DNA of 64,000 bases from Yuukianura sp. NJ FZ-2021 (Eukaryota). The stretch covers positions 3,224,001-3,288,000 of the forward strand of contig CM102287.1 in assembly GCA_046563655.1 (NCBI GenBank). The letters run 5' to 3'. Positions 45,056 through 64,000 of the stretch are shown here, piece by piece; positions within the stretch are counted from its first letter, which is position 1, and each line of letters opens with the position of its first letter. A model generated the notes under the pieces. The model had not been told where the DNA came from and searched no databases. It saw only the letters and a program-made list of their open reading frames with translations. Both the position numbers and the translations under genes were made by a program.

Positions 45056-45155
45056 NNNNNNNNNNNNNNNNNNNNNNNNNNNNNNNNNNNNNNNNNNNNN
45101 NNNNNNNNNNNNNNNNNNNNNNNNNNNNNNNNNNNNNNNNNNNNNNNNNNNNNNN
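45056..45155. other. Assembly gap (100 N, nominal size)
   Basis: Exactly 100 N, a common placeholder for a gap of unknown size. Confidence 0.99.
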
Positions 45156-47512
45156 GAGAACAAACCACATACATACTGCCTTACTACACAAAAACTGATT
45201 CAGTTGAACTAAAATTTTTAGCAAGTTCTATTCAAGTTTTAAGCAAACGGGTTTTAGAAACTTCAAAAAAAAACAGGGAAAAAATTATTTTTTTGGTTCC
45301 TTTCCATGCGATTGCCTGAAATGCGAGAATTAAATTTCACAGATTCGTGCTGCGATCAAGAAATGTTAGGCTAAGCAATTACGTTGAGATGATTTTTTTG
45401 TGTTAGGTTAGTATTAGGTTGCGTTGTTTTTGTGTTAGGTTAGTATTAGGTTAAGGGTTGATTGAAAAAGGCGTTGCTTTTTGGTTGCGAGAGTCAGTTG
45501 TGGTGGGTTTGGCACTAATGGGGATTTGATTAGTCTCCCATTACACTTCAACCTAGTCAGAAAAAAAGTTAGAGAAAGTTAGGCTAGAAAAAAGGAAAAT
45601 CGACTGAGATTTTTGGCAAAAGCGACCTTTGACATCATTCTGCACAATTCCGAGTCAAGATATGAACCGATTGTGCAAATGCGAAAACTGTTTTGTGCTA
45701 AAAAAGAAAGTTTTTGGACTTAGGGCAAAAATGGTGACGAAAAACAACAGCCGCGATAGAACTTTCTCCACAAAAAGCAAGTTTTTTTTGTCTCCTTTTG
45801 AAGTGGAGGAAGATCTTTGGCGAACTTTTTAAAAGTGCTGACATCAGTCTGTTTGGAAACAAAATGAAAAAAGAAAGTTTTCTCATCATCCCGAACTTAG
45901 CACCAAACACTTCACATCATCATTAGCAATAGCTCCACTTTCCACATTCATTACTTTCTTATTTTCAAAATTTCAAAAAAACACATTTTTCAGAAATTCT
46001 GAAATCTTAAAAAGCCGTTCGTAAAATAAAAATTTTCAGGGCCCAGACTTTCTCCATCAAAAAACGTAGAGAAAGCTTGCACAAATTAATAAACTTTTTT
46101 TTAAAGAATTTTTTTTTCTCAAACTTTTTTCGAAAATATTTTCAGCAGAGCTTCAAAATTTGAGCTAATCAAAACATTCCATTGTAAACCCTTAATTAAA
46201 AAGATTTTGAACTTTCCCGCTTATAAATTAATTAAAAATTATGCACACTACTAATCAACGCATATCACAATCAACTTCCTTTGAACTTTCTCTCAACTCT
46301 AAAAGTAAAAGTTAGCTTTTTAAGCTCAAAAACCCAAAAGTTAAAACGAAGCGAGGAACCTTTTGAAATTGAAATTTTGGCGGCGGAATTGAAATTTTTG
46401 GAATATCTTTGGTTTGACTTTGGCTCCTTTTAAGCGTATTCCATCTTCGGAGAAAGTTGATTTCGGAGAGAATGATTCTCCCTCTCAGTATTTCCCTTAA
46501 GGAACTTTCTCTTGCTCTTGAAAATGTTAGGCTAACATTTTAAAACCTAACATTTGTTGGTTAGAGTTCCAAGGCGCGTATTTCCTATTCAAAATCCCCC
46601 TTTCTCCACCCGACTTCAAATTCAGTGAGGCATGAATAGTAGATTAAGGTTCTAGTGTACAAAACCAACCTAACCTAAAAACCTAGCTTGCTTTTCCATA
46701 ATTTTGGCGAGTCAGGGATTAAGGTCGCTCGAAGTTAGGCTAGAAGTCTAAGTTAGGTTAGTAGCCTAAGTTAGGCTAGTAGCCTAACGTAGTCAGGAGA
46801 AGAAAGTCTCTGGGCGCTAGTAACGTTAGAGACACAAGACAAAGGAGATTAGGGTAGATGGGAATAGGGATTGACTATTGTTAAATTAGGAAATTAGGAT
46901 AGGAAAGTTAGGCTAACTTTAGGTTTTGGTTAGGTTTTGGTTAAAGTCAATACCCTATGGACAAACTCCGCACATTGCCAAATCCAAAGAGCTCTTGACA
47001 ATAATGAAGTTTGAGGTAAGGACAAGACTTGGGATTTGGTGGGATTAGAAGATTTGGAAAGTCTAACCTGAAGTAAAGCAAAGTTCGCTTTCACTCTATG
47101 TTGTCATGTTTTCGAAATTTTGAAAAAAGGATTCAAAAAAGTTGCAAAGAAGGCTTTCCCTAACAAACGTGACTCAATGCGAAATGTTTGATGAATCGGG
47201 CTGTAAACCGGAAAAATTCGAGTTTCGAAACGTTAGAATTTTTCTCATCCTGTAAAAATTTATAAATTCTAAAAACCTGCCATTTTTTTTATTTGAATTC
47301 TGCAGTTTAGGTTTGGAATCAGGGATTAGTCTCAACACAAAAATTTTTTAAAAAATTGCAAACTTTTAAAAACTGGAATCTTTTGGCTAAACTAATTGAG
47401 TTTTCTATGATACAGAAAACAATAGAGTTTAGTCTTCCCGCTGCCAAAAACTAATTAAGTCTCTTCCAGATTAATTTGGGTATTAGCGTTCCATGTAACT
47501 AGGATCTAGCTA

Positions 47513-47552
47513 GGATGCTGGATGCTGGATGCTGAATGCTGAATGCTGGATG
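47513..47552. repeat. 7-bp microsatellite (GGATGCT/GAATGCT), ~5.7 copies
   Basis: ggatgct ggatgct ggatgct gaatgct gaatgct ggatg read directly. Confidence 0.85.
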
Positions 47553-47749
47553 GGTTTCGAAGAATACAGACAATGGACAGTATCCAGGACATTGGAAAAC
47601 AATAGATTTCCAAATCCAGCAGTAGATAGGATTAGCGTCCATGCCCAAACGTGGTTTCTCTTCAGAATCCACAAGCAATGCTCCCCACGACCCAATTTTG
47701 AACCTCTCTGTCCAATTTTCTAAAGGAATCAATGGCTTTTCACCAGTAC

Positions 47750-47806
47750 TACTGAAAGTATATACTGGAATACTGGAATACTGGCAGTATATCCTGGAAT
47801 ACTGGG
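47750..47806. repeat. Degenerate 8-bp tandem repeat (TACTGGAA)
   Basis: tactgaaa..tactggaa tactggaa tactggca..tcctggaa tactggga. Confidence 0.7.
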
Positions 47807-50687
47807 AGTTGGAGCTTCAAATGGTTGAATTTGGATCAGTGTAAGAGTGGAAGTTGGAAGAAGTAGACAATGGATAATTTAAAGGAGAAAGTATAATGGA
47901 AGTTGGCACACTGCTGGAGCTCTGCTTTCTCCATCAACGAAAGTTGTAAGTTCCTGGAGAACTGGAGTGCTGGTTCTGAATGTTAATTAATGAGAATTAA
48001 TTCCCATGCTCCCTCTGCCTATCGGCTCCAATAAGACTAATGTAATTGACACATAATTCTAAATCCGCTTGATTAAACACTCACTCACATGCGTGTGAGA
48101 GAGAGAAAAGAGGAGAGAAAAAGAGTAGTAGCAAGCAGTATGAGAGAAAAAAAAAGAGACGGAGAGAGAAAGAACGGGAGAAAACAAAGAAAAAGAGAAA
48201 AGAAATTGATTTTTTGAAATTTTATTACTTACTGCTGCAACTCAATAAAATTTTGAGAGTTAATAAAATTAAGGTTTTGAAGTTTTCTAAAAGTTTTATT
48301 ACGGGTGTTAAAGAACTATTTATAACTGCTTTTCAAAATCGATTACTTAAGAAATTTAGAAAAGAGCAAATTGCTTTCTCCCTATCCGTTTTTTTTCAAA
48401 AAAGTGAAAATTTAGATAATTTAAAAGTCTGGGAGCGTGAGAATTTGAGTGTTCGGAAGACGGTTGGTTTGGAGTTGGAGAAAGTTGGTGAAAGTGAATT
48501 AATTGGGCATGATTGGAGTGACAGCGTTTAATTGCCCATTAAAAAACACGTTCTCAACCAAGAGGCCCTTTTTCCATAGTCAAGGGCTCCCTAGGGACAT
48601 TTTCGAAAATTAAAATTTAAAAAAATTTTAAATTACAAACTTTATTTTTTAAGTAGCAAAAGCTACTTTATGGAACGATTTTGTCTGTCTGTCTGACCGG
48701 CTGTTTCTGCGTTTTGATTTAATGTTGGATAATGCTTTTCCCATTTTGGTTAGTTTTTTTTTTCTAAAAAGTTAGGTTCTGATTAGCTATTTTTTTGGAA
48801 CATAAATTATTGTTGAAAGGACAGAACATGTTATTGTTGTCACTGTTGACGTGAGTTATGAAGGGAGTCAATAGGCTCATTCATCTTCCAGATAATTTAT
48901 TGTCCACTTTCCCACGTCCTAAGGTAAATCGAAAGATTCTTTTAGTTAGCTTAACCCAACCTTTGACCTTTTGATCTCTTTTTTTTTGAAAAACTTTTTC
49001 GAAATCAAACATTACAGCCAAAACCAAACCAAAGACGATACTTTCTACTTTAAGTAAAACTGAAAATGTTAACTTAATCTAACCGAGTTCCTTTGGGATT
49101 CTTCCACTTCAAATCCCAATCAACTTAATTAACTTCATACAACTCTCTCTTCAAAACCAAAAAACTCCGTTGTAAGAGACTCAGAGAAATTTTTAGAAAA
49201 AGTACACTTGAGTTTAGATTTTTAGAAAAAATGTTGAATTTAGGGTTTGGAAAAGAGAAAAGATTGAAGTAGAACTGAAGCGGAAGGAGGACTGCTTTAG
49301 GTTGAGTGATTTTGTTCGTACCAGCAGAGCACAGTCTCAAGATGGAGAGCTTTGGCTTAAGAGCCATTTCATTTAAAAAAAAACTCGTTTTTTAAAAAAA
49401 AAGAAAGTAAAATTGAAAAGTTTAGTCAAGTGAAATTGTATTCTGATTTAATGTGGGAGGGAGAAAGGGAGGGGTACTGGCTTATTTCTTTAAAAAAACG
49501 AAAGCCTTTCAACAAAATCGTTCCGCAAGATACTCCCTTTGTCCCTTTCAGCTTTCACTCTTAAGAATGTGTTGTTTTTTTTTTTTTTGAAAATTTTGAA
49601 AATTTTTTTTTAACTTTGCAAATGCAAATCTAGTCAAATCCTTTAAAATTTTGAGAATTTCGATAAACCTAGAAACACTAAAACAAAACAAAACAAAAAT
49701 ACGGCATCTTTGGTAGAATGAAAAAGTAGCTTTCGCTACTTTAATAAGGCCTCATTGCACTTTTAATGCAGTTAAATTTTTTTAAAATATAAAAAATCAA
49801 CATATTTGGAAAAAATGTAACGTGATACAAAAGATTAAAAGTTTTTTAATTACCAATGTCAGAGAGACTGTGATGAAAGCAGAGAAAGACTAAAATTAGA
49901 CGCAGCACAAAATCTTCCATTTTCCTCGCTTTGTTCAAGTAAACAAATTTTTGTCAAATTTTTAGAAAAATTTTAATGAAGCACTTGGAAATCTCTCAAA
50001 CATTTGAAAATTCTGTCTAAACTGTAACAAATCCGAAGTCAAAAAAGCTCACTCTCACTTTTGTAACAACTGTAAAAGTTAAATTAATCTAACGTCTGTA
50101 CAATGACAAAGGTCAAACTTTATCTATTGGAATAGCCACACTAACTTGACTAACTTTTTTAAAAAATAAGTTAGTTTTTTTTAAATCACTTGTGCAGCAA
50201 GATTTAGGTGACTTTAGTTTAGGTTTTGGTAAGATGTTGCTCCGGTGCGAGAAAGAAAGCGAATGAGGGAGAAAATCTTGTAGTGGAGAAAATATGAACG
50301 TTTTCTCCCTCCAAACTTTGAAACTTTCTCCCCTTTACACCGTTACACCTTCCTGTTTTTGCAAATTCCACAAAACAGAAAATGTTGGCATAAAACTGTA
50401 GTTTACTAAGAATTACTCAGGCAAATAAGTTGTAGAATTGAATTAAGCTAGGTAAGAGGTACTCTTGAATACTAAAGTTGCATAAATGTTTGTACAAATG
50501 TGAAAATTATCAGGAATTCTATAAGCAAAACCTATTTTGAGTGACTACGATAACTAAAAGCAGAAAAATATAGTAAAGACCTCGAAGAAGAAAGTTACAC
50601 ATAATACTTGGTGTTACATAACATACTGGAAAATACTTGACGTTATAACGAAAACTTCTGAGAAGTGAAGATACAGCGATGCTGATA

Positions 50688-51864
50688 CTATTGTCGCTGT
50701 GTACGGGCGTTCTTGCGACATTGATGTTCGTGTTCCAACAAAGTACGGAAGCACATTGCGGCTTCTTGTACTGGCATCCTGACATACGAATTGATCAGTG
50801 CCTCCATGGCTCCTTTCTTCAAGTTGCGGAAGAAGATGGATTCAATAGCTTTGGCATTGATGGTGCTAAATGACCAAAAAACAGTAAGGACAAAGTTAAC
50901 TTGTTAACGTTGTTAAAGTTAACCCAAGTATTATATTGATTACTCACCGAAGCATAGGCAAAAGCAAAAGGACATCAAGAATTCGACGACCTAATTGCTG
51001 ACGAATCATTGTCCCAATAGGATTCGGAACTCCGACAGGAATGCTGTACTTGTGCAGTTGGTCCAGAACGGCCTTATGAAAACTATTGACGATCGTAATA
51101 GTGTCCGGACCAAATTCGGCTACACGATCTGAAACATAAGAATACCGTATGTCTACTGTTGTTTCGTAATTAGAAGTTTAAGTTAACTTTTGTGGTCGTG
51201 AACGTTGGTTTACCGGAACTGGTTAGAGCCAACAGCTTCAAGGCTTCGTATTCATAGGTGTCCAGATTGAATTGTTGCAAAGTACAACAAATCATTGTGA
51301 ACTTGCTAATTAGTTCATCCAGCTTCGAACCTTTGCCTGGACCAAGAGCTTTCTCAACCTTCGAGCCGTAGCGGAATTGCGAGGAGCGCATGAGATGTTC
51401 AGCTGAGACGGAACTGTGGGAATACTCGGCAAATGAAACGATGAACAAATCACTCCAGGCGGAACCAATCAACGAAGTCTGGATGTCTGGTCTGAAAATG
51501 TCAAATCAAGTTCATGACTTTGTTTAAAAGTAATGTACGAAGTGGTAATCGATGTCCAACGTTACCTGAGTTGGCTAAGGGACGAAATGGCGCGTGTCCA
51601 GTGTACTGCGAATTGGAGGATGGTTATGCCTCCTGAGTTGACTGCTGCCATGTAGTCAGGTACGATGATAGCTACTGGCAACTGTGCCGCAACCAGTGGT
51701 GACATTGTTTCGTCCAAATCCGAACAATGTTGACCGGGACGCGGAGGCTGTGGACGAGGTGGACGAGCTTCGCTGTCATCACGATAAACTACCCGACACA
51801 TCCGTGTTTCGTTCGCTTCCACTTCTTCGACGAATTCAACTTCCGAGTCTGACTCGATCTCCAT
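50688..51864 (-). CDS. Nuclear receptor ligand-binding-domain protein, NR2C/D (TR2/TR4/Hr78)-like, ~311 aa, no DNA-binding domain; exons 51864-51566, 51491-51214, 51128-50948, 50865-50688
   Basis: Four exons joined by GT-AG introns of 74, 85 and 82 nt total 936 nt in frame to TAG. The product has LBD motifs: H3-H5 'ILQFAVHWTRAISSLSQLRPDIQTSLIGSAWSDLFIVSFAE', H7-H8 'CTLQQFNLDTYEYEALKLLALTSSD', and H10-H12 'RRILDVLLLLPMLRTINAKAIESIFFRNLKKGAMEALINSYVRM'. These resemble TR4/Hr78 as I recall them (HWARSIP.F..L...TSLVRACWNELF; IDGYEYAYLKAIVLFSPD; LLLRLPALR...EELFF). Confidence 0.88.
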
Positions 51865-52541
51865 GTTTTACTATCGTCGTTACTTAATTGTTAATTACTA
51901 ATTAATCAATTTAAACCGTAAGTTTGGTAAAAATCCGTGCCAACAGTTCTGACAAAAGTAACGGTGTCCGCAAATTACTCCAAAAAAAAAGACCACACAC
52001 GGTCTGCGTCCGTCGAAATGCAAAAATAAAAAAAATCCAAGACAAAGGAATTCGCAACTGCGCATGATTGGCGCAAAGATCGGCATCTGAACAGAAAAAA
52101 TGGTTTTTCTTTGTTTGTGGTTGACAAAAACAAAATGTAGATCCATTGTAACAGTAGGGTTTTGACGTAAACGGGCAAGCTAATTTTGAACATATCACGA
52201 GCCATCACGCTTTTGTTTTAATTTGTGTCGTTTAATTACTTTGCAACACATTAGAAATTAAATTATATGTAATGTATTTCTGTGAGATTGTACAACTTTT
52301 CAACACATTCTACATTACATTACTTTGTACATTGTACTTTCCTGTACTGCACACTACGCTATATTCTACTTGCAATAAATTGTTGCATTTGCATAATTTT
52401 TGAAAACTAAACTGACATTGGCAATAGTATCGTAAAAACATTTGTAAACACTAAACAGCAATGGGTTAGTAATAAAACGGGTTGGCTTTTTATGTGGCTA
52501 CAATAATGGAATGCCTGCCTCACTCCAACTAAATCAAAATG

Positions 52542-52626
52542 GTCACGTGTGCTGTGACGTAATAGAGCGGCAATTAACAGTTAGTAATTTATCAAGGTCA
52601 ACTTCGTCAGCTGATGAAGGTCAGTC
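52542..52626 (+). promoter_or_regulatory. Candidate promoter motif cluster (E-box/CLEAR-like, CRE-like, two AGGTCA half-sites, Inr-like TCAGTC)
   Basis: GTCACGTG at 52542-52549, TGACGTAAT at 52555-52563, AGGTCA at ~52595 and ~52618, TCAGTC at 52621-52626. It lies between the divergent NR and membrane-protein genes. Motif match only. Confidence 0.35.
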
Positions 52627-54432
52627 GTCAGTGGGGTCTGGGGTGGGACTGGGACAGCGGAAAGTATTTTTATCGTTGCGATGATCTTCGGACATTTACA
52701 ATTACAAATGGAGTCCGTCATGGCAGCTTATCTACTGAACCCTATCTACTGAACAGCAGCGGTGTCTCGACTCGAGATGTCGAGAAGGACGACTACTAAT
52801 CCAGTTCTACTTGAAGGAGTAAGCAAGTTACGGTAATTCATTCGTTTTGCAACAATAATCGATGTAACATTTGTACTCCAGGTTTCAAGAATTTGGACCC
52901 TACGCTTGGAATTGACTGATCGATCATCCCTTATGTACAACGTTCTTTATCTAATGCATTCAAATCGAGGCCAATTCCTGTTTGTATGAAATGTGATCCT
53001 GAGACAGTAAATTTTGGGTATGACGTTAATCGAATTCCCAACAGTTTGTAAAATATCGTTTTGATCTAGTCACGAGATGAACTAGAAAGATTCATTTCTA
53101 CAGAAGGGAGTGTGTGGGGGGTGTCAATAGTTTGACATGGTGCCTAAATTATAGTCTTCCTCAAATTGAAGTTCGAACAGGACCATAATACTTTTCTGTG
53201 TTTTCAGCACAATGGAGAAACGAAAGTAGTTCATATTCTGAAGATCTTCCAGTGACAGTAATTGAGCTCAAATGTCCCGGACAGCATTTCTCATGCTTGG
53301 TTCAAGTACATCTACCTTCCTAATCTTCCACAAGAACCAGTATGTTCCAAACCATTCAAGTCAATGGCTCAAAAGACCAAGAGTCCAAAATGCTCACTTG
53401 TCTCTGAATTCTTCTCAGGTTTGGGCCATCCATTTTTGTTGATGTTGTTGAAGTGATGCTTGAAAAGTGTGGAGTTACTAGGGAAGGGGAGGATGCTGGA
53501 TACGACTGGACCAAAATAATTCGAAATATGGTCATGACATTTCCGTTGTGCTCCTAAACCTGAATGGAGGGGACTTGGGAGGTAAGTGAGCCACGAAATA
53601 GGCTACACGTCCAACGACTTTCTTCAATTCAGGACTTAAAGCACAACAACATTGGGCAACGGGCCCTCTAGCCCCTGTTGTCGTCAACGTCCTCAGTTCT
53701 TGCAAAAATACTAAAGTTTTACTTTTCTGTTTTAGGAAATTCGGGAAATCTGTCGTCTTGAGGACGTTTTGGCCTAAAACCGTCCAGGATTGTCCAGAAC
53801 TCTTGAATGGTAGAACTGCTGGAGCCCTTGAAGGCTCCTTGCCCAAGTAAGTCGGAACAAGAGTTATAAAGTTATGAAGGAAAGCAAGGAATTGGAATTG
53901 TGAGGTGAAAGTTTCAGAGGAAAGTTTAATGGAATGGAATGCCTAGAAATTGAGTATCTCTCCCCCTTACCACTTTTCCTTTATACTTCCCAAAAGGAAA
54001 CCTCAACTGCTTTTTTTCTTCAAAAAGTTTGAATTATTTTCTGGTTTCAGAAATGTAACAAAATTTTCTCTTGTAAAAAGGATTCAGTTTTTCGGAAAAG
54101 TTGGTCCAGAAGTTTTTTAGTTTTCAGTTTGCGGAAGAAGTTGCGTTTAAAAAAAGTTTACTTTGCGTAGAGTAATCTTTGGGAATCAAAAATAAAGTGA
54201 CTGTCCACTACTACTACTTTCCTTCTTTCAAGTCACGAGTTACTCCAGGAAACGATAAGAAACGAAAGTGAATCCAGGAAATGGAGAAACCCAAAATGTG
54301 AATTCCTCTACTAAAACGTATTCTCACACTTTCGTAGATCTTGGATATCAAAACTGGAAATGAGTTTTCACTTCCAAGAAGTGAGCATTGGGAAATGCAA
54401 AAGTTTGAAAAGTTTGTCCTGAAAACCAAGAA

Positions 54433-54453
54433 AGGTCACGGGGTCACAGCTCA
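54433..54453 (+). promoter_or_regulatory. Compound nuclear-receptor response element (DR2+DR1)
   Basis: AGGTCA cg GGGTCA c AGCTCA. Motif match only. Confidence 0.4.
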
Positions 54454-55459
54454 TAAGTATTGTCAAGCAGTTTATAGAATTTATTGAATTTTACAAAAAT
54501 TTACAATTTTTTTGGTCATTCCTTCATTCCCATTTTGATATTTTTTTTGTTTACTTATTATAACATCTTTTTTTTTTTGCAGATTCTCTTCTCGTGACTT
54601 TAAATTGTGTTGCTCCGAATATCCAATCAGAAGTCGACGAATCTGGTGGTGGCTGGCGTTTTTGTTTCCTAAACCAAAGAAATCTGGACACATAAGCAAC
54701 ACCTACCGGGAGAGATGCATAGTCGAGCTAGCTCTGATTTACCATCACTGTAACCGCCTAACCTCCAACGACTTTTGACGACCATTTTTCCGGAAGTTTG
54801 ATCTTACCAGGCGTCTCCAATCTTACTAAAGGTCGCACCACAAGCGCACTACTGCAAAGACTTGACAAGGTTCGTTAATGTTTTAAAGTACTACACTTAC
54901 AGAAGTTTCTTGTACCTAACTTTGCATTAATTCAACCAGAAATGCTGATTCAGATTTGCGTCATCTCTACAAACACAAATCACAATTCGACTCATAACCA
55001 AAACAAGCAGTCATTTGTGTAAAAGTGCCACTGACTCTGTTGTTGCACTCCAAATACCAATACAGTAGGGGAAGAATCCACAAAGGACAAAGAGAGGACA
55101 CGGAACACAGCAGTTTCAAATCATAACACTCCACTACTCCACAAAGAAACATTGTTAATTGAAGTTTCAAGATAAGTTTCAAGCATAATAAGCCACTTTC
55201 TGGACTTGGAAGGTCGTCTCTTCACTGTGGACGTTCTCTAATGTGACCTTGGACTTTGCATTTTAAGTGCTCATTGTAGCCTACTACGCTTGTTTTGAAA
55301 TCAAAAATTGTCAGCTGATCTAAGGTAACAATCACCATTCACTCACCACTATCAATTTATACTTTTTAGAACAGAAATATATTTATTGATCAATCGATTA
55401 ATGCATGAAGTAAGCAATTGATTTACGAACTAATAGTTAATTTGTCATTTCAGTACATC

Positions 55460-57739
55460 ATGGATAACGACAGAGGTCAAGGTGGTGCCAATCCGGATAG
55501 CCCTGAACCTGATGCTGAAAACAAAGTGGATACTGCCAATACTACTGGAAGTGAGGCTGATGCTGAGAACAAAGGCGATACTGCTGATACTACTGGAAGT
55601 GAGGAAAATCCTAGCGGCAAATCGTCAACAGCTGATGAATCGAGTATCGAAGCCCTGAACTGGAGCGACTTTGAAGAAGACGAACTACAACTATCAGCCG
55701 CTGACGCTGCTTTATTGCAGAGCATTCACTCGGTTTTATCTGATGACGGTGGAAGTGGAGCTGGTGATGGGGTCAAGAACATGTCAACTTCAGTTTCTTC
55801 TGATATCACAGCAGTTCTGGCTGATGGTGTGGCAGATGATGATGAGTTTGAAGAAAACGACGTGGAAATTGAGTTCGGTAGGGTTGACAGTGCTGAATTG
55901 ATGGATACACCTCCGACGAAATCAAATATAAATTTTGGCACCAAGAGGAAACGTGAAGAGAGTCCTGTCATGTGGAACACGTTACTCGTTCCACCAAGCT
56001 TTGCAAACAATGAGCCAATCAGCGGCGATTTATCTTCAAATGCAGCAGTCCTGGATGATGGTGTAAGTCACTCAACATTCTCAAGTAATTGATTGATTAA
56101 TCGTGCTAATTTCTTTTCTTAGTTTATAAACTGTTACATATTTTTTTTATAGCCAATTTGGGCCAAAGGAAGCAAAAGATACAAATTCGAAGAGAATCGT
56201 CGTGTGAATCAAAAACTAACCTTCGGTGTTCTTCTTTCTGTCGTTCTTGCCTTGGGCCTTGGACTTGGGAATCTTGTGGCATACAATGAATGTGAAGCTG
56301 AGCATAAAGCTACAGAAGTACCCTGTCCAATGACATCTAAAGTCTCATCTCCTGGAATTATCACTCCAACACTTCCACCAATACTTCCAACTTCTGTAGA
56401 ACCGGATGCTGCCAGGCCTTTGCCAGTTCCAGCATCATCGATTCCTCCAAGTACAACTACTGCCATTCCAGAAGTTACCATTCCAGCATCAGATCCAGTA
56501 AAACCAATGGTTGATCCCAAGTATTCTCAACATGCCGAAGAGCTTTCCAAAGTCCTCAAGATGCTGGACGAGTTGTCCAGGAAGATTGACCGATTTGAGA
56601 ATACTACAAGACAGTTGAGCGGAATTGTGATGATGCGGGACGAAATTAAGATGGAAGAGGATGCTCCGCCGGTAAAGAAAACAAAGTTCACACAACTTCT
56701 GTCTGAAGTGATGACGGCCAAGAAAGTCAAGAAAGCTACAGAGGTCAATTCGGGTCAAGTTAAAACTTGGAGGGACAAGAAGGAAGAGGTGCTGGAGGAT
56801 ATTGCTGGAGCTGTGCTGGAGGCAATGCAAGCAGAGGATGAACCGGAACAAAGTACCTTGCTGGAGAGTAGTCAAGTATTTTCAGTAGATGAAGTCCATA
56901 CACCACAACTGGATGTCCAACAATTGTCACAATCTTCATCAAAATCTGAAGATTTTCTGGAAGTATCGCCAACTATTGACGAAAATAAGCTGCAGGATAC
57001 TGAAGATGAACTTGTCAGTTCAGATCCTGAAGAACTTATGTCCGAAGAGGAAGATCAGAATGCTGAAGCCGATCAGCTGATCCAGAAACCGAAGTTGAAA
57101 CGTGAGGCTGCGATTGATCTGGAAGACGAAGATTTACTGTTGCAGATGGAACCGGAACGGCAAAATCCTACAAATTTTGAGCTTCCTGAACACAAGTCCA
57201 GCAAGAAGACGAACGAGGATCGGAAAAAAGAAAAGAATTGGGAGAAAGAGAAACGGAGGCTGGAAAAAGAGCAATTTCGAAAACAGAAGGAGCAGGAAAG
57301 AGAACAATTCCGAAAACAGAAGGAGCAGGAAAGAGAGCAATTTCGAAAACAGAAAGAGCAGGAAAGAGAGCAATTTCGAAAACAGAAAGAGCAGGAAAGA
57401 GAACAATTTCGAAAACAGAAGGAACAAGAAAGAGAGCAATTTCGAAAACAGAAGGAGCAGGAAAAATTGGAACGGAAGAAGGCAAAATACGAAAATTCCA
57501 AGCACCACAAAAACCGAAACGATGAAGAGATGCTCTACAAGCAGAAGCAGAGGTCAGACAAGGTCAAAGCAAAATCAAACTCTGACTGGGTCACTGCTAG
57601 AGCACAGAATCGCGAATCGAGTCGACGAGCTTCGGAAGAATACGACCGGAAACACAAGAATTGGCAAACAGAAAGAAGCCGACTCCGCGAAGAGTTTCGA
57701 ATTGTTTCGGCTATCACTAACAACAATAGAGAGATTTAG
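55460..57739 (+). CDS. ~729-aa single-pass membrane protein (acidic N-terminus, TM helix, P/T-rich linker, coiled coil, charged repeats); possibly CCPG1/PBXIP1-like; coding exons 55460-56062 and 56153-57739
   Basis: ATG at 55460 follows a tttcag acceptor. A GTAAGT donor at 56063 and a ttttatag acceptor at 56152 join ORFs 55418-56092 and 56204-57739 in phase 0 (2190 nt). The TM segment LTFGVLLSVVLALGLGLGNLVAY is preceded by basic KRYKFEENRR. The gene structure is well supported; the family call is tentative. Confidence 0.85.
55511..55606 (+). repeat. In-frame 48-bp tandem duplication (DAENKxDTAxTTGSE x2)
   Basis: DAENKVDTANTTGSEA / DAENKGDTADTTGSEE visible in both DNA and protein. Confidence 0.85.
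57269..57466 (+). repeat. Coding minisatellite, 6 x 33 bp (EQFRKQKEQER)
   Basis: Six consecutive units ga(g/a)caatt(t/c)cgaaaacagaa(g/a)ga(g/a)ca(g/a)gaaaga, with the last unit ending aaa. Confidence 0.97.
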
Positions 57740-58616
57740 TTACACAAAAGTTTGAAAAACCTTTGACCTCGTTGACCTTTGGGTTTATTCTTCCTGGTAT
57801 CTTTGAAAATGGTAAGTTTCAAGAATTCATCTCTACATTCTTGTAATCCTTGACTTGTGTAATGTTCGAAATTTTTAAAAATCTGAAATTGTTTTCAAGT
57901 TTTCAGTGTGTAATATATCTTTGACTTCAAATTTTAGCTTAGACATTTCGAAAATGTAAATTTGGAAATTTTCGATTTTGAAATTTGAATTTGTTAAAAA
58001 TGATTTAATGTCCTCCGATGTAACTATTTAAGGCATTGTCTTTCGTGTTGTGGATTATTATTATAAATGACGTAACTAGAAAGTTACCACTTCCTAAAGT
58101 ATAATTTTAAGTGTGTCAACATAACTACTCGATGTCAATTACAATTAACACAACAAAAATGAATCTAGGGTGTTTTGCTTTTCAGTGTAAGATGTGTCAT
58201 GAATCCAGTAAGTTTGCAAAAAAATTGAATGTAGGAATATTTTACTCTTGAATTGAATCGGAATCGCTGCGCAAGAAAAACTATATTAATTATTTAAGTA
58301 ATTAAGTGTTTACAGTTAAGTTGTCAAGGCCATTTAATTATAAGGGGCAATTTAATTGGTTATTGTGTGTTAAGAGAGTGATTAGTGATTAAGATTACTA
58401 AAATATAGCGGAATTGTACCTTGTACCTAATAAATTACAACTGTGGTAATAAACATACGCAATTATAAATTATGGAATTAATCGTAGAATTTGTCTAATT
58501 AATTCTAATTAACTAATTACTGGAAGTAGGGATATCATCTTGCTGATGCCTCGGCAAAATGAAACCGTTCTATTCTCCTCCGAGACCAAGACGAAAGTGA
58601 ACGGGAATAATTTGGG

Positions 58617-58958
58617 GAGCTTCACTTTTATATGAAAAAGGAAGGAGTTACTGGTTACTCTTTTGAGGAGTAAGATCCGACGGAATCCTACTCTTTTGGA
58701 GTTAGAATGGGAACCGCCCCCTTCCAGGACCAAGATGAGATTGAACTAGAACAAGTTGGCGAGCTTTCCTTTTATATCGACAAAGAAGGAGTAACTGGTA
58801 ACTCTTTTTTGCGTTTTGTTGTTCCGCCGGAGGTCCGCACTCCTGAAGTACACCTGGCGCCATTTTTGTTCCCTTTAAATGTCCGCACTCTGAGACTACC
58901 CCCGTCTTTTTTTCAAAAAATGTCTGGTAACTCTTTTGAGGAGTAACATGTTACTCTT
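58617..58958. repeat. Internally repetitive, hairpin-rich intergenic element (possible non-autonomous transposon remnant)
   Basis: A ~48-bp block gagctt..cttttatat....aa.gaaggagt.actggt.actctttt occurs at ~58617 and ~58761. ctggt(t/a)actcttttgaggagtaa occurs at ~58650 and ~58924, and gtccgcactc occurs twice. A 16-bp palindrome GAGTAACATGTTACTC lies at 58941-58956. Confidence 0.55.
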
Positions 58959-59239
58959 CTGCAGATTTATGTGAAAAAGAAAAACGCGAAGTTTTAATGA
59001 GTTTTCTTGTCAGAATATTCAAAATTAAAATTACACGTAAAGTTCGTGACAAACATAACTTAACCTTAAATGTTAGAATAAAAACCAAACTTATTGCAAA
59101 TTTCACAAAACTTTATGACTTAGGGAGTACAATGAGTTGTAAGTGTCGAGTTAGCAGTTATTATTTACAATTCACCGAGTTGTCATCAATCACAGTTCCA
59201 ATTAACTAAAAACCTAACTTTTAGTCAGAATTGACTTAA

Positions 59240-62200
59240 CTATGGTTTAGCTGTCCGAAACTTGGCCAAGTATCCATTGATTTCCATTGGTTTCAAAACT
59301 ACTCCTTCACTGGCAGATCGTTTCCTCCTTGGTTCTGAGTTGTCCTCAACAAACGTCAGTTTTCTCTCCTCCACTTCTGATTCTATGAGATCACCCAACA
59401 ACTCCTTTGGCTTGAACTAATTGAACAAAGTCATTAGATGATCAATTACTTTCAATTAAGATTGATGTTAATTTAAAACTTACTTCTCCCAGGACTCCTC
59501 CGCTGGTGGAACATTCTGGCAGCGGAAGACTTCGGAGGAACTGTCCGTCGTACCCGAGTCTTCGGACCAGCACACCAGAGAAGTCATTGGCCTCAAAACT
59601 ATGGTCATCCAAGTGATTTTGATAGGAGGGCAGAGGGGACAGATCCACCAGTTGAACATCGCAGGGCAATGACCTTGACCCTGACGGGACGCTGTAGTCA
59701 CTCAACGCTGAAAGCGATTCGTCCGGAGCCTCAGGTTGGCCTACAAATGTTTGTAGAGGGTGAAGCAAGTCTTCTAAAAGTATTTGTGATTGGAGGCTGA
59801 GCATTGGCGGAGATTCGTCACGATTCTTGTCCTAAAAGTTAAAAGTTTTTAGAATCAGTTCAAAGTTTAGAAAATCCAACCGTGACCTTTGACCCAGTGC
59901 TTACCTGACAGTGAGGCACTTCGAAGACGATTCTAAACACATTTTCAGTTTCAAGGTTATCCTGGTCCCCTTGTCCCGCACCTCGGTTGTCATCTTGGTT
60001 CAACCTTCGGTCCATTATAACCTGAACAAATCAGTTTTAGAATTTTTTAAAACTTTTTTCAAAATTGAAAACAAGTACTTTTGGAGAAGGCTTACTTCAA
60101 ATTCCCCGGAAGCCAAACTGGAAGCTCCCAAAGGCTGGCCGCTGAGAACAGTAAACCGCAGCGTAGGTTCTTCAATGTAGGCAGCAGTTGGAAGTGGGTA
60201 GTAATTTCCTTGCAGCGGTATTTTCTCAAATCGCTTCCGTTTGATCATCTAAAAGTACAAAAACTCGTTTTTAGAAAATTTCGAAATTTCAACAAAATTG
60301 TACGTCAGCATCTCACCTGAAACCCGTTCAAGTCCGTGTAGAAGATATTTCCGGAAGCAACGTTCGTTTCAAACTTCATCATCAGCTCAAAGTTGTCCTT
60401 CTCCCGACGAATGTCCACCACGTTTTTAACTTCAATTGCATTCTTTTCATAACCTAAAAAAAGTTGTTAAGTTATTTTTTGAAAAAGTTTTAAAAATTAC
60501 TTTTTTGAAACAGTAATTCTACATTCCAACTAAACTAACTGCATTTTGAACTTAGTTAATTAACTTTTCCCTTAATTAAATCTCACCGGCATGGTTGTAC
60601 AGCGTAACACGATGTTTGATCTGCTCTAACCAAACTTCCACAAACTGCTGAAACTTCCCTTTGACTATTCGCACAAATTGTTTTCCCAGGGGAATCTTCT
60701 TGGCTGGTCCACCAGGCAAGAAGAGGTACAGACCGGAAGTTTCTCTTGTACGACGAGCACCGTAACTAGATTAATCGTAATTAGCGCAATCAATTAACAA
60801 TTACTAATTAAGTTCAAGCTAAATCTTACTGGTTCATGGATATCCGAATGGGATGTGTAGCTCCATCAACAGTGACTGACTTGGTGAATCCGTTTTTGTC
60901 AAAGTTCAATTTGAGTCTATCATTTGAAATCTCCACCTCATCTTCCTCAGTTATAATTTTAATTGGAAATTCGTCATGTCCTAAAATATTAGCTGTAGCT
61001 GGGTTCATCACCAGCAGTTCCGGACGAGTCCGATCGCTATCACATTAAAAAAAAACGAAATAAATGAAATTTTCAACATTTCATAGAAAATATTTATAAA
61101 TTAACTTCTGTGTGAACTTACTCATTCCTTTCAAATTTGAGTAAAAAGTTGGCGACATTGAGTGGGTTCAGTTCTGCAACAAAGTTCAATTCGAAAACGT
61201 TTCTCCTCACGGTCGTCCTGTCTTCAAAGACTGGCAGCACGTCTGAGTCGATTAGTTTGCCAGAGTGATCATAAACCTGAAAAATTCAACAAAATGTAGA
61301 TTTTTGAGCACGAAAATTCAAAAATTTCAAAAATTGAGGCTGCATTGCATACCTTGACGTGATAAGTTGAAACATAAAGACGAATTAGCTGCGATCTTCT
61401 TCTTCCTACCGAATTGAAGACAACAACTAAACGTTTGTTCATTTGGTCATCCAGTACAATCAAGTTGTACTGCGGAAGTGTATCTTGTGTATCTCTGGAC
61501 TCAGCAGCGTCAAAGTAAACAGCATCTGATTTGATACTGTCGATGTCAAAGCTTTTGTCGTCCAAATGTGTCAATACTTGCAGCGATTGCTGCAGTACAT
61601 GGTCGCAGGAAGCCAGCGATGAGAGTAACCTAGGTTCAAACAAAAAGATGTAAAAGGCAAACTAACAGAATTTTCAAAAACTTAAAAAATTTTTGTAGTT
61701 CATTTTGTGTTCCAAAATTTTCATACTTTTTTCCATAGTCCACCATGACATGGTCCTTAGAAGTGCCAGTGATACCGTCATGATGCTGAAAGAGGCTCAA
61801 CATTCTTCGCGCCTGAATCAAGTGGCCAAGCATTTCCTTCACAAATGGCAGCGTCAATCGATTTTCCTGCCGTCTGTAAATCTCAGCGGCCATGAGCGTA
61901 TAAGCGATGTGAGCCGATCTAGAAAATTACAAAAATCGCACAAACTTCACCATACTAAACTTAATTCGTCAAATCGTCAATGGGTAAAAATATTTGATAC
62001 TTTTTAACTTAAGTAGGTGGTCGGAAATGCTGTAAGTGGTCGGGAAAATTGCAAGTGGTCAGAGAAGATGGTCGGAAATTGTTAGGTGGTCTTACTTGTA
62101 AGTGGTCGGAAGTTGTAAGGTGGTCGGAAAAGCTGTATTTAGTTTTACCTCAAGTTACTAATAAGTTGTCTGTCCATGGCCTTGTGAAATGGTCTTGACG

Positions 62201-64000
62201 TGAAGTACCCACTCCAGTAATGATCGTCTCGATCAGCATAAGTAAAAAAGTCACCAGAGAGAGCTTTGGGTGCAAATCGTTTTTGCTCAATTTCTTTCTC
62301 CAGTGCTGCAAAGTAGTCTTCGAGCGTAGCGAATTTGATCTAAACATCGAAATTTTGAAAAAAAACAAACAAAACATTTTCAGTCAAAACTGTGTTTTGT
62401 TACCTCAACGTGGAGTTCTGGTCTAGCGTTGAGAGCGTCCATAATTCGTTTGTAATTTTCTGTTTGTGCTGCCCATTCCTTGGAGTCTTCCCACCGGAAG
62501 TCATCGCCAAGTGGAACCAACAGCACATTCGTCTGATAAAGTTCTGCTTTCTTCCGGTACTGATCCAGAAGTGGCAATGATCTACAAAAAAGCATTGTTA
62601 AGTTAAATTCTTTAGTTGGTAGCGTTATTCAAAATTTTTGTGTATCGCTGCTGATTTTGGTCTAATCGTTTTACCTCTCCAGCGTCTGTGTTCTGCCCTC
62701 GGCTGTTTTTGCATGCGTGATGGGGATTGGTTTAGGTTGTATTCCCCATGGGCAGCTCATGTGTGACACTGACGACATTCTTTTGAAGTCGTACTGACAA
62801 CAAACTTTAGGTTCTGGCCCACACTGGAACAATTTAGTCAAAATCATCAAAGCCATTTTTCACCAAAATTGGCAAAAGTTTGTGCAAAATCACAGAATTT
62901 TCAAAAAAGAATTACCGTGTGTGGAATATCGTAGCTGTAGAAAGGCATCATGTGACAGAGGATGTCGGAAGCACCTTCGCTATCTACAATTACAATTAAT
63001 TGACCTTTGACTTGTTTAATTGAATTGAAGAAGATGTTCAACTAATTTACCCCAAATTTGTCTCCACTTGAACTCCAAACCCTTGACTCTGGCCAGCTCC
63101 TTCTTTACAGCATAGTGGGTCCTCTGAATCAACATGTTTTTCACTCCAGAATGCTTTATCAAGTAGGCATTGGTCGGAGACATTCCAAACGGATCAATTG
63201 ACCAACCATTCCTTCAAACAAACAGCACAAATTACAAATTAACGAAAAATTAGTTACTAATTGTCAAAATTTCATGATTACCTTGGAATGTACTTCAAGT
63301 GATGGTAGAGCCACTGGTGCCCCTCGATCAGCTGACTCAACATGGCATAGTAGTGAGCGTTGGCTTCATCCGGCATGACCCACCCTCCAGTAACGAATTC
63401 CAGTCTTCCTTCGTTCGTTAGCCTGGAAAATTTGAGTTTTTTTTTAATTTTGAACATTTTTTGAAAGCTGTTTGAACAAAATGACTTTTACCCCTTGACC
63501 TCTGCCTTTTCAGATGAGTCCAAACCGTCCCACCAAAGACTAAAGTAAGAGATTTCTGCCCAAATGAACTTCACTTCCAGATTTTCACGCATTTCTCTCA
63601 GCATTGAATCCAGAATGTGTTTAGTCTGGTCCATAAAGTATCGTTCGAACGTCTTGATCCAACCTACAATTAATCGATCAATCAATTAATCAACTGTTGA
63701 TTAATTGATTTTGACTAAATGTTGACATCAAAAGTACCTGGATCATTATGAGAATGAGGAATGACGAAAACTTTAAGTTTGTTTTCGGCAGTGAAACGAG
63801 TCAAGTTGGCCTCAAATTCCCAACCCTGTTTCCAGGCACCGCCATCCGGATTATCGAATTGGAGCAGATCGTAGACATTGAGCATCTGAAAATGAGAAAT
63901 TGACAAACCAATTAACAAGAAACACTAATCGTTTTGAATCAATTACATTAACGTCAGATTTGGCCAGTCGAATCCCAACAGCAGAAGAACAGGGTCCTTG
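59240..64000 (-). CDS. MAN2A1: Golgi alpha-mannosidase II (glycoside hydrolase family 38, MAN2A1/alpha-Man-II ortholog); ~19 exons in window, 5' end beyond 64000
   Basis: Colinear GH38/ManII motifs across short-intron exons: [106 protein letters not shown]...[62 protein letters not shown], and C-terminal LKPMEINGY. Stop TAG is at 59242-59240. Confidence 0.97.
59883..59895 (-). promoter_or_regulatory. Perfect DR1 element in a mannosidase intron
   Basis: Plus-strand TGACCTtTGACCC equals minus-strand GGGTCAaAGGTCA. Motif match only. Confidence 0.35.
62015..62131. repeat. Intronic degenerate minisatellite with (A/G)GTGGTCGGAAA core, ~7 copies
   Basis: The tggtc core recurs about every 12-20 bp and enlarges this mannosidase intron relative to its neighbours. 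Confidence 0.8.

Follow-up and report, generated by a model that had tools for sequence, protein, structure and literature searches.

A probable TR4-like ligand-binding-domain gene, very divergent and apparently without a DNA-binding domain, in a springtail genome

A four-exon gene with a putative nuclear-receptor (NR) ligand-binding domain (LBD), referred to below as the LBD gene, lies on the minus strand of the window, the whole 64-kb stretch of springtail DNA analysed here. Exon 1 (51566..51864, 299 nt) opens with the ATG at 51864-51862 and encodes an acidic, Pro-rich N-terminus followed by presumed helices 1-3; its 3′ part carries the beginning of the LBD signature (..FAVHWTRAISSLSQL). Exon 2 (51214..51491, 278 nt) encodes the central LBD, from presumed helices 4/5 to 8. 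Exon 3 (50948..51128, 181 nt) is assigned presumed helices 9 to 10/11 on the basis of collinearity with a TR4 chain and an NR2-type motif, and terminates in ..RRILDVLLLLPMLR. Exon 4 (50688..50865, 178 nt, the last three being the TAG at 50690-50688) would supply helices 11-12 (TINAKAIESIFF..AMEALINSYV), followed by a tail of ~27 aa. Each of the three introns runs from GT to AG, so that the six splice sites are all canonical: intron 1 (51492..51565, 74 nt, GC 0.34) reads GTAAC..TTTCAG and is in phase 2, intron 2 (51129..51213, 85 nt, GC 0.34) reads GTAAA..TTTCAG and is in phase 1, and intron 3 (50866..50947, 82 nt, GC 0.29) reads GTGAGT..ATTTAG and is in phase 2. The coding sequence of 936 nt, 311 codons plus the TAG, is unbroken across the four minus-strand exons. 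Re-reading of the minus strand from 50688 to 51864 thus gave the same model as the first-pass annotation, which had described a clean 4-exon ORF of 311 aa. The gene model is real, and its predicted product is a protein of 35 kDa.

Base composition and codon usage were compared with this model. GC content is 48% in the exons versus 29-34% in the introns. Using a codon table trained on 1309 codons of the two neighbouring genes, the annotated frame scored 0.127 over the whole coding sequence, as opposed to -0.13 to -0.36 in the five other frames, and when each exon was scored singly the annotated frame was the top one of the three same-strand frames tried. Since 34 control ORFs drawn from flanking non-genic DNA reached scores of up to 0.19, a range that includes the value for the LBD gene, the support from codon usage is weak.

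Immediately 5′ of the ATG the reading frame is closed. The initiator codon is preceded by AAC and by a TAA at 51870-51868, the in-frame stop two codons upstream that had been pointed out earlier, and sequence reading together with the ORF list places this TAA in a block of five in-frame stops (TAG TAA .. TAA .. TAG TAA; 51868..51900, minus strand). With this block in place the ORF cannot be extended contiguously in the 5′ direction. Farther upstream of the ATG, the minus strand has three AG sites that are T-rich and resemble acceptors (51948..52102, with the G at 52087, 51978 and 51949). These may represent ends of a 5′-UTR intron; because of the stop block they cannot contribute coding sequence. 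The context of the start codon is AAAC-ATG-G, which looks like a good one for initiation. There is no TATA box within 1.5 kb 5′ of the gene, and no AATAAA in the 788 nt that follow the stop, where just an AGTAAA at +281 and an ATTAAA at +711 were seen. An upstream ORF (51901-52179) was tried as the remnant of a RING/ZZ domain and rejected, its sole match being CEBP_ZZ at E 0.099, with five stops between the ORF and the ATG.

Two unrelated genes fill the DNA 5′ of the LBD gene. A plus-strand gene (55409-57736, comprising 55409-56089 and 56153-57736) is located between the LBD gene and a Golgi alpha-mannosidase II gene, which was placed by homologue mapping at ~59255 to beyond 64000 on the minus strand, the same strand as the LBD gene. 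Residues 128-1162 of a springtail homologue of the mannosidase (P0007) map onto 63897-59255, and neighbouring exon matches are separated by 12 gaps of 46-227 nt; introns observed in this genome as a whole span 46-230 nt. A search with a mannosidase exon found 128 relatives, none of them identical; among the best named ones, which share 59-67% identity with it, are proteins of Allacma, Orchesella, isopods, decapods and a dragonfly; the sole named homologue of the plus-strand gene is from Orchesella dallaii. The plus-strand gene and the mannosidase gene recur in the same order and orientation on L001 and L002, two related contigs from metagenomes. The sequence of these contigs upstream of the gene pair is ~2.5 and 3.4 kb long, whereas the LBD gene begins 3.6 kb upstream of the pair in the window, so that the absence of a tblastn match to the LBD gene in them (best E 0.64) is uninformative. 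The only assembly gap in the window (45056-45155) lies 3′ of the LBD gene. A 43-kb array of a 127-bp satellite is found 5.5 kb from the gene, and a Pao/BEL retroelement is also near. Capture by a transposon was considered and rejected: the candidate inverted repeat (I2, 48965-48997 / 51972-52004) is a 73%-complementary pair of A/T-rich, low-complexity sequences, and no transposase is found nearby.

Searches for a DNA-binding domain (DBD) covered the whole window. Strict and lenient patterns for the P-box, for the two zinc fingers of NRs and for degraded forms of them yielded nothing NR-like in six frames over the 64 kb; of the three lenient matches, two were fortuitous plus-strand strings and the third was a retroelement's CCHC knuckle. 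This extends to the full window the statement of the first-pass annotation that no CxxC..CEGCKGFF-type exon occurs on the minus strand up to the next gene. PF00105 matched none of the ORFs of at least 45 aa listed for 45156-64000 (182 ORFs), the gene's own included. The canonical NR arrangement, in which a zf-C4 domain stands N-terminal to the LBD, is therefore absent within the window (to position 64000), and as far as the window reaches the architecture is that of the NR0B type, an LBD without a DBD.

We next consider the identity of the encoded protein. Homology searches took contiguous exon pieces one by one. In phmmer searches of the PDB, exon 2 (92 aa) matched, at 20.9 bits, 3p0u_A (E 0.0043) and 7xva_A (E 0.0044), both of them the human NR2C2/TR4 LBD; these two distinct entries of NR2C2 were the only PDB sequences at E<=10. 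Correction for the four exon queries that were run raises the E value of 0.0043 to ~0.02. The alignment of exon 2 residues 2-90 with residues 66-154 of the TR4 chain is ungapped, with 23 of 89 positions identical as counted from the alignment. In the ESM Atlas, where the comparison uses language-model features, 21 of the 30 clusters nearest to exon 2 were NR-LBD (PF00104) clusters, with top scores of 0.96, 0.95 and 0.95 and a recognition value of 2998; PF00104 was assigned to 32-44% of the members of the three best clusters.

The other exons gave no such matches. Exons 1, 3 and 4, searched singly, had no NR match by PDB phmmer (0, 1 and 1 unrelated rows, respectively), and exon 3 retrieved no NR cluster from the ESM Atlas, its top score being 0.79. 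In Pfam, the four exon pieces searched singly at E<=1 returned zero families, Hormone_recep among those missing, and seven pieces (the four exons and three stop-to-stop extensions) searched at E<=10 returned no NR family, the sole row being a capsid family at E 0.12. Thus neither Hormone_recep nor zf-C4, the Pfam families by which the first-pass annotation proposed to judge the protein, was matched by any single exon piece. A fold search with the predicted model of exon 2, a poor model with a pLDDT of 65, found no NR match, and a complex prediction in which the four exon pieces were entered as separate chains, an off-label use, scored 0.02.

The location of the recognisable motifs accounts for part of this pattern. 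By eye, the helix 3-5 signature straddles the exon 1/2 junction, with W-T-R at the helix-3 position in exon 1 and D-I-Q-T-S-L..W-S-D-L-F opening exon 2. Likewise, LLLLPMLR and TINAKAIESIFF together straddle the exon 3/4 junction, with AIESIFF following LLLLPMLR. We take W-T-R and D-I-Q-T-S-L..W-S-D-L-F to be typical LBD motifs and LLLLPMLR..AIESIFF to be a typical NR2 helix 10/11. As these motifs sit on exon junctions, single-exon searches miss them. When the TR4 chain of 249 residues is laid out collinearly along the 311-aa protein, the LBD equivalent extends from about residue 37 to about residue 285, which leaves space for a complete helix 1-12 domain.

Taken together, these data argue that the protein is very probably a derivative of an NR LBD, and that the gene is probably an LBD-only gene whose very divergent LBD has NR2C/D (TR2/TR4/HR78) affinity. 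With exons 1, 3 and 4 unmatched in the PDB, and exon 3 also in the Atlas, a complete, folded LBD is something that we infer rather than demonstrate. The earlier description of a TR2/TR4/Hr78-like LBD with all main motifs consequently held in part: the central portion is TR4/NR2C2-like, that being the only PDB match at E<=10, and exon 2 is recognised both through the TR4 LBD and in the Atlas, but exons 1, 3 and 4 were not recognised by the tools and helix 12 is non-canonical. Descent from NR2C/D, which is suggested by NR2C2 as the sole PDB match at E<=10, is best treated as a lead rather than a result.

Outside and within the presumed LBD, few functional motifs were seen. Residues 1-60 have a pI of 4.3, with 15 Asp and Glu residues and 7 prolines, as expected from the earlier description of an acidic, proline-rich N-terminus of ~60 aa, and the protein contains no basic cluster. 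The acidic, proline-rich part ahead of the presumed LBD would be some 40-60 aa long. Two finer readings of this region are not supported: neither canonical pattern for a SUMO-interacting motif (SIM) matches within residues 1-60, where SDSEVEFVEEV had been called SIM-like, and MCRVVYRD, which had been likened to the start of a DBD, has a single Cys and no zinc-finger spacing. The sole LxxLL motif is LDVLL at residue 243, within presumed helix 10, and none lies outside the LBD core. The C-terminal part shows no AF-2 core of the usual make-up, two hydrophobic residues, one of any kind, an acidic one and two further hydrophobic ones; LINSYV occupies the helix-12 position.

Relatives of the LBD gene were sought with exon 2. 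A word-based protein homologue search found no match at E<=0.01 among 179 candidates. When 1.84 billion representatives were searched exhaustively with HMMER, the one protein obtained was P0003, an internally repetitive translation of 1953 aa with 8 weak stretches of similarity, which was judged spurious; in a library of this size a 92-aa query needs ~45 bits, and any relative with less than about 40% identity would go undetected. A scan of metagenome contigs gave 161 pattern matches, 0 of which were confirmed, under a requirement for conserved 8-mers that makes the scan insensitive at the 40-57% identity of the neighbouring gene.

What might such a protein do? Being devoid of a zinc-finger DBD, the product would be unable to bind hormone-response elements on its own. 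It could pair through LBD-LBD contacts with the animal's own canonical receptors, or titrate their cofactors, and the output of the partner receptors would then be modulated, most likely dampened, as by SHP and DAX1. Because the helix-12 position is without the AF-2 acidic residue, classical co-activator recruitment would be disfavoured and a repressive direction probable. We therefore put forward tentatively, at somewhat under an even chance, that this is a genuine, divergent NR2C/D-like LBD-only gene that would be expressed, would fold as an LBD and would act on partner receptors as a DNA-independent, probably repressive modulator. A more elaborate version is doubtful. It would make the gene an old, fast-evolving offshoot of HR78/TR2-TR4, restricted to the springtail lineage, that shed its DBD, gained an acidic, Pro-rich N-terminal module and became specialised in restraining NR2 or ecdysone-pathway receptors without contacting DNA. 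The gene would then be the arthropod analogue of SHP/DAX1, of independent origin and with a parent subfamily unlike that of any described DBD-less receptor.

The same locus could also harbour a relic, that is, a partial duplicate of an already divergent, lineage-specific NR gene that came to rest beside satellite and retroelement DNA, is unexpressed or has a useless product, and has acquired no disabling mutations yet. Partial gene copies accumulate beside satellite arrays and gaps, and the LBD gene adjoins the 43-kb satellite array, the assembly gap and the Pao/BEL retroelement. The missing canonical poly(A) signal and TATA box, and a codon score that falls within the control range, are consistent with a relic, as is the outcome of the searches, which found neither an orthologue nor a paralogue. 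The parent might be a divergent receptor of the same species that was copied only recently. Against these points, all four exons are open, the six splice sites are canonical, the initiation context looks good, and the contrast in GC between exons and introns is sharp. In addition, no second copy or fragment of the gene is present in the window. Neutral decay would be expected to break the frame, provided that the divergence postdates the duplication. That frame and splice sites are intact despite the great distance from every known NR argues for long-term constraint, and we consider a relic unlikely.

A genuine LBD-only product might, alternatively, be a ligand-dependent sensor in the style of the spider-mite HR96-LBD proteins, binding a small molecule and switching targets through a DBD-bearing partner. 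This has a direct precedent: two Tetranychus urticae genes without a DBD, HR96-LBD-1a and HR96-LBD-1b, are reported to regulate detoxification genes in trans, the expression of which changes when the two are knocked down by RNAi (PMC10435515). The retention of a region the size of a full-length LBD would also suit a sensor. Nothing in the sequence points to a ligand pocket, however, and the AF-2 acidic residue is missing. Furthermore, the similarity is to TR4 and not to the NR1I/J group, and the gene occurs just once in the window as opposed to being a member of an expanded family. A sensor role is thus quite unlikely, and the repressive modulator outlined above is the reading that we carry forward.

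The gene model might instead be incomplete, with one or more DBD exons beyond the window, >12 kb upstream and past two genes, spliced into exon 1 to give a canonical receptor. Long introns after the DBD exons are common in NR genes of other arthropods, and exon 1 does contain one pyrimidine-rich AG that could serve as an internal acceptor (51747..51763, minus strand; first exon base 51747). This site is in phase 0 and its tract has 11 pyrimidines in 15 positions, but C predominates in it and T takes up just 3 positions, whereas the three real acceptors of the gene have 9-10 T in 15. A 12-kb intron would also be atypical in view of the 12 inter-exon gaps of the mannosidase gene, none of which exceeds 227 nt. 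The stretch 5′ of the LBD gene that is free of any DBD exon measures 12.1 kb, and the two genes that occupy it form a conserved syntenic pair in L001 and L002. A false call of a DBD-less receptor is not without example, since the apparent LBD-only model of oyster CgNR1D is reported to have been an assembly or annotation error (PMC4070562). In the present case, no zinc-finger relic occurs in the window, and five stops precede an ATG in a presumably good initiation context. In a genome where observed introns are around a hundred nt in length, a DBD exon would need to lie at a distance of >12 kb, across two conserved genes, and to be spliced into exon 1 3′ of the ATG, and a hidden distant DBD exon, and with it a canonical receptor, is accordingly improbable.

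Finally, that the product is an unrelated helical protein with a chance resemblance to TR4 in exon 2 is highly improbable, for while Pfam gave zero matches, the PDB match has an E value of just 0.004 at 20.9 bits, three of the four exons are unrecognised and the fold search with the poor exon 2 model (pLDDT 65) found no NR, two independent methods, phmmer against the PDB and the ESM Atlas, agree on an NR LBD for exon 2, the TR4 alignment is ungapped across 89 residues, and the flanking motifs W-T-R (helix 3) and LLLLPMLR..IESIFF are placed as in an LBD.

The DNA-independent modulator that we favour can be set against known receptors, beginning with the human TR4/NR2C2 LBD (3p0u, 7xva). The springtail protein shares D..TSL....W..LF and YEY..LK with it and is collinear over the length of the whole LBD. 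The similarity is nevertheless far under the level expected of orthologues and is invisible to Pfam, and both TR4 and HR78 possess a zf-C4 DBD, whereas the LBD gene has none in the window. Arthropod HR78 (NR2D) is presumed to be the counterpart of TR4 for this comparison.

NR0B receptors (DAX1/NR0B1 and SHP/NR0B2) have the same architecture, an LBD without a DBD, and would share the DNA-independent action proposed here. NR0B proteins dock on their partners through LxxLL-type motifs, whereas the LBD gene encodes no LxxLL outside helix 10. At E<=10 none of the four exons matched a DAX1 or SHP chain in the PDB, although a distant kinship may escape a search of this kind. NR0B is stated to be vertebrate-only (PMC4247118), and none was found in Daphnia (PMC2774871). 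The LBD gene would thus have an origin independent of NR0B.

Receptors reduced to the LBD have also been described in invertebrates. In T. urticae, 47 HR96-LBD genes without a DBD are reported (PMC10435515), and these are likewise arthropod LBDs lacking a DBD. They differ from the LBD gene in being derived from HR96 (NR1J), in forming a large family and in belonging to another arthropod lineage; the LBD gene is TR4-like and single in the window. No NR1-type chain was among the PDB matches of exon 2 at E<=10, which, in this comparison with PDB chains, were to NR2C2 only. Among molluscs, oyster CgNR0B is reported as LBD-only (PMC4070562), as are three genes in Lymnaea stagnalis, one of which has NR2F1 as its best hit (PMC11589774). 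The mollusc predictions are sporadic, lineage-specific and named by best hit, with one of them NR2-like; they belong to another phylum and, as here, are gene models alone.

The novelty implied by the first-pass annotation was thus overstated, as DBD-less LBD genes are on record for arthropods (PMC10435515) and molluscs (PMC4070562, PMC11589774). Searches of open-access text brought up neither an LBD-only gene derived from NR2C/D nor any description of receptors in springtails. Provided that it is real and is expressed, the gene would represent an independent case of an NR cut down to its ligand-binding half, from the TR2/TR4/HR78 lineage and in a basal hexapod; it would support the shedding of the DBD as a recurrent path to new receptor modulators and would open a way into the HR78 branch, which is poorly understood. 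Its value is comparative more than conceptual: the LBD-only principle is already established by the NR0B, mollusc and spider-mite genes, to which the springtail LBD gene adds a modest further example.

Two segments between the genes of the window are conserved in L001, one of two related metagenome contigs (L001 and L002) that carry the neighbouring plus-strand gene and mannosidase gene. The first (53516-53613) aligns with L001 740-825 at 74% identity over 98 nt and the second (53920-53960) with L001 924-964 at 93% over 41 nt; coding exons near both blocks are just 64-70% identical between the window and L001. The first block ends, on the plus strand, in a conserved GAG/GTAAGTG, and it may be a first exon, non-coding, of the gene on that strand at 55409-57736. 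If it does serve as the first exon, the interval at ~51.9-53.5 kb would be a shared divergent promoter region. An Rfam scan of the conserved-block region returned no family reaching threshold, and the lone row, MIR2606, was at chance level (E 0.09; it scored 27 bits, where the gathering score is 140).

The plus-strand gene itself (55409-57736) consists of two ORFs with 63 nt between them, probably an intron. Its product is acidic, has a single hydrophobic, transmembrane-like stretch, and contains six copies of the 11-aa repeat EQFRKQKEQER, corresponding to a 33-bp tandem repeat at 57262-57464. The gene matched no Pfam family. Eleven homologues were found; the sole named one belongs to Orchesella dallaii, a springtail, and the remainder come from metagenome or run assemblies. 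Convergent with this gene is a minus-strand gene for Golgi alpha-mannosidase II (GH38), which occupies ~59255-64000, extends past the end of the window and has at least 13 exons with short introns; the convergent arrangement is also found in L001 and L002.

Upstream of the main gene, the four-exon, minus-strand model resembling a nuclear-receptor LBD, lies a 93-aa ORF (51901-52179, minus strand) that is in the frame of the main ORF, with five stops in between. The start of this upstream ORF directly follows a sequence that looks like a strong acceptor (ttttttctgttcag/ATG at 52087), and its end is rich in Cys and His (..CGHRYFCQNCW..). Its sole match, CEBP_ZZ, had an E value of 0.099, which is at chance level. 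The upstream ORF may be a uORF, or nothing.

Much of the window (2265-45055) is occupied by a 127-bp satellite present in 336.7 copies with 95% matches and no indels, a constant GC content of 0.36 and a strong GC skew of about -0.22. The array stops at a 100-N assembly gap (45056-45155). Adjoining the satellite, at 3-1714, is the 5′ portion of a retroelement, consisting of two overlapping minus-strand ORFs (959-1714 and 3-983). They carry DUF1759, which is the gag of Pao/BEL-type LTR elements, together with a CCHC knuckle and an aspartyl protease of retroviral type.
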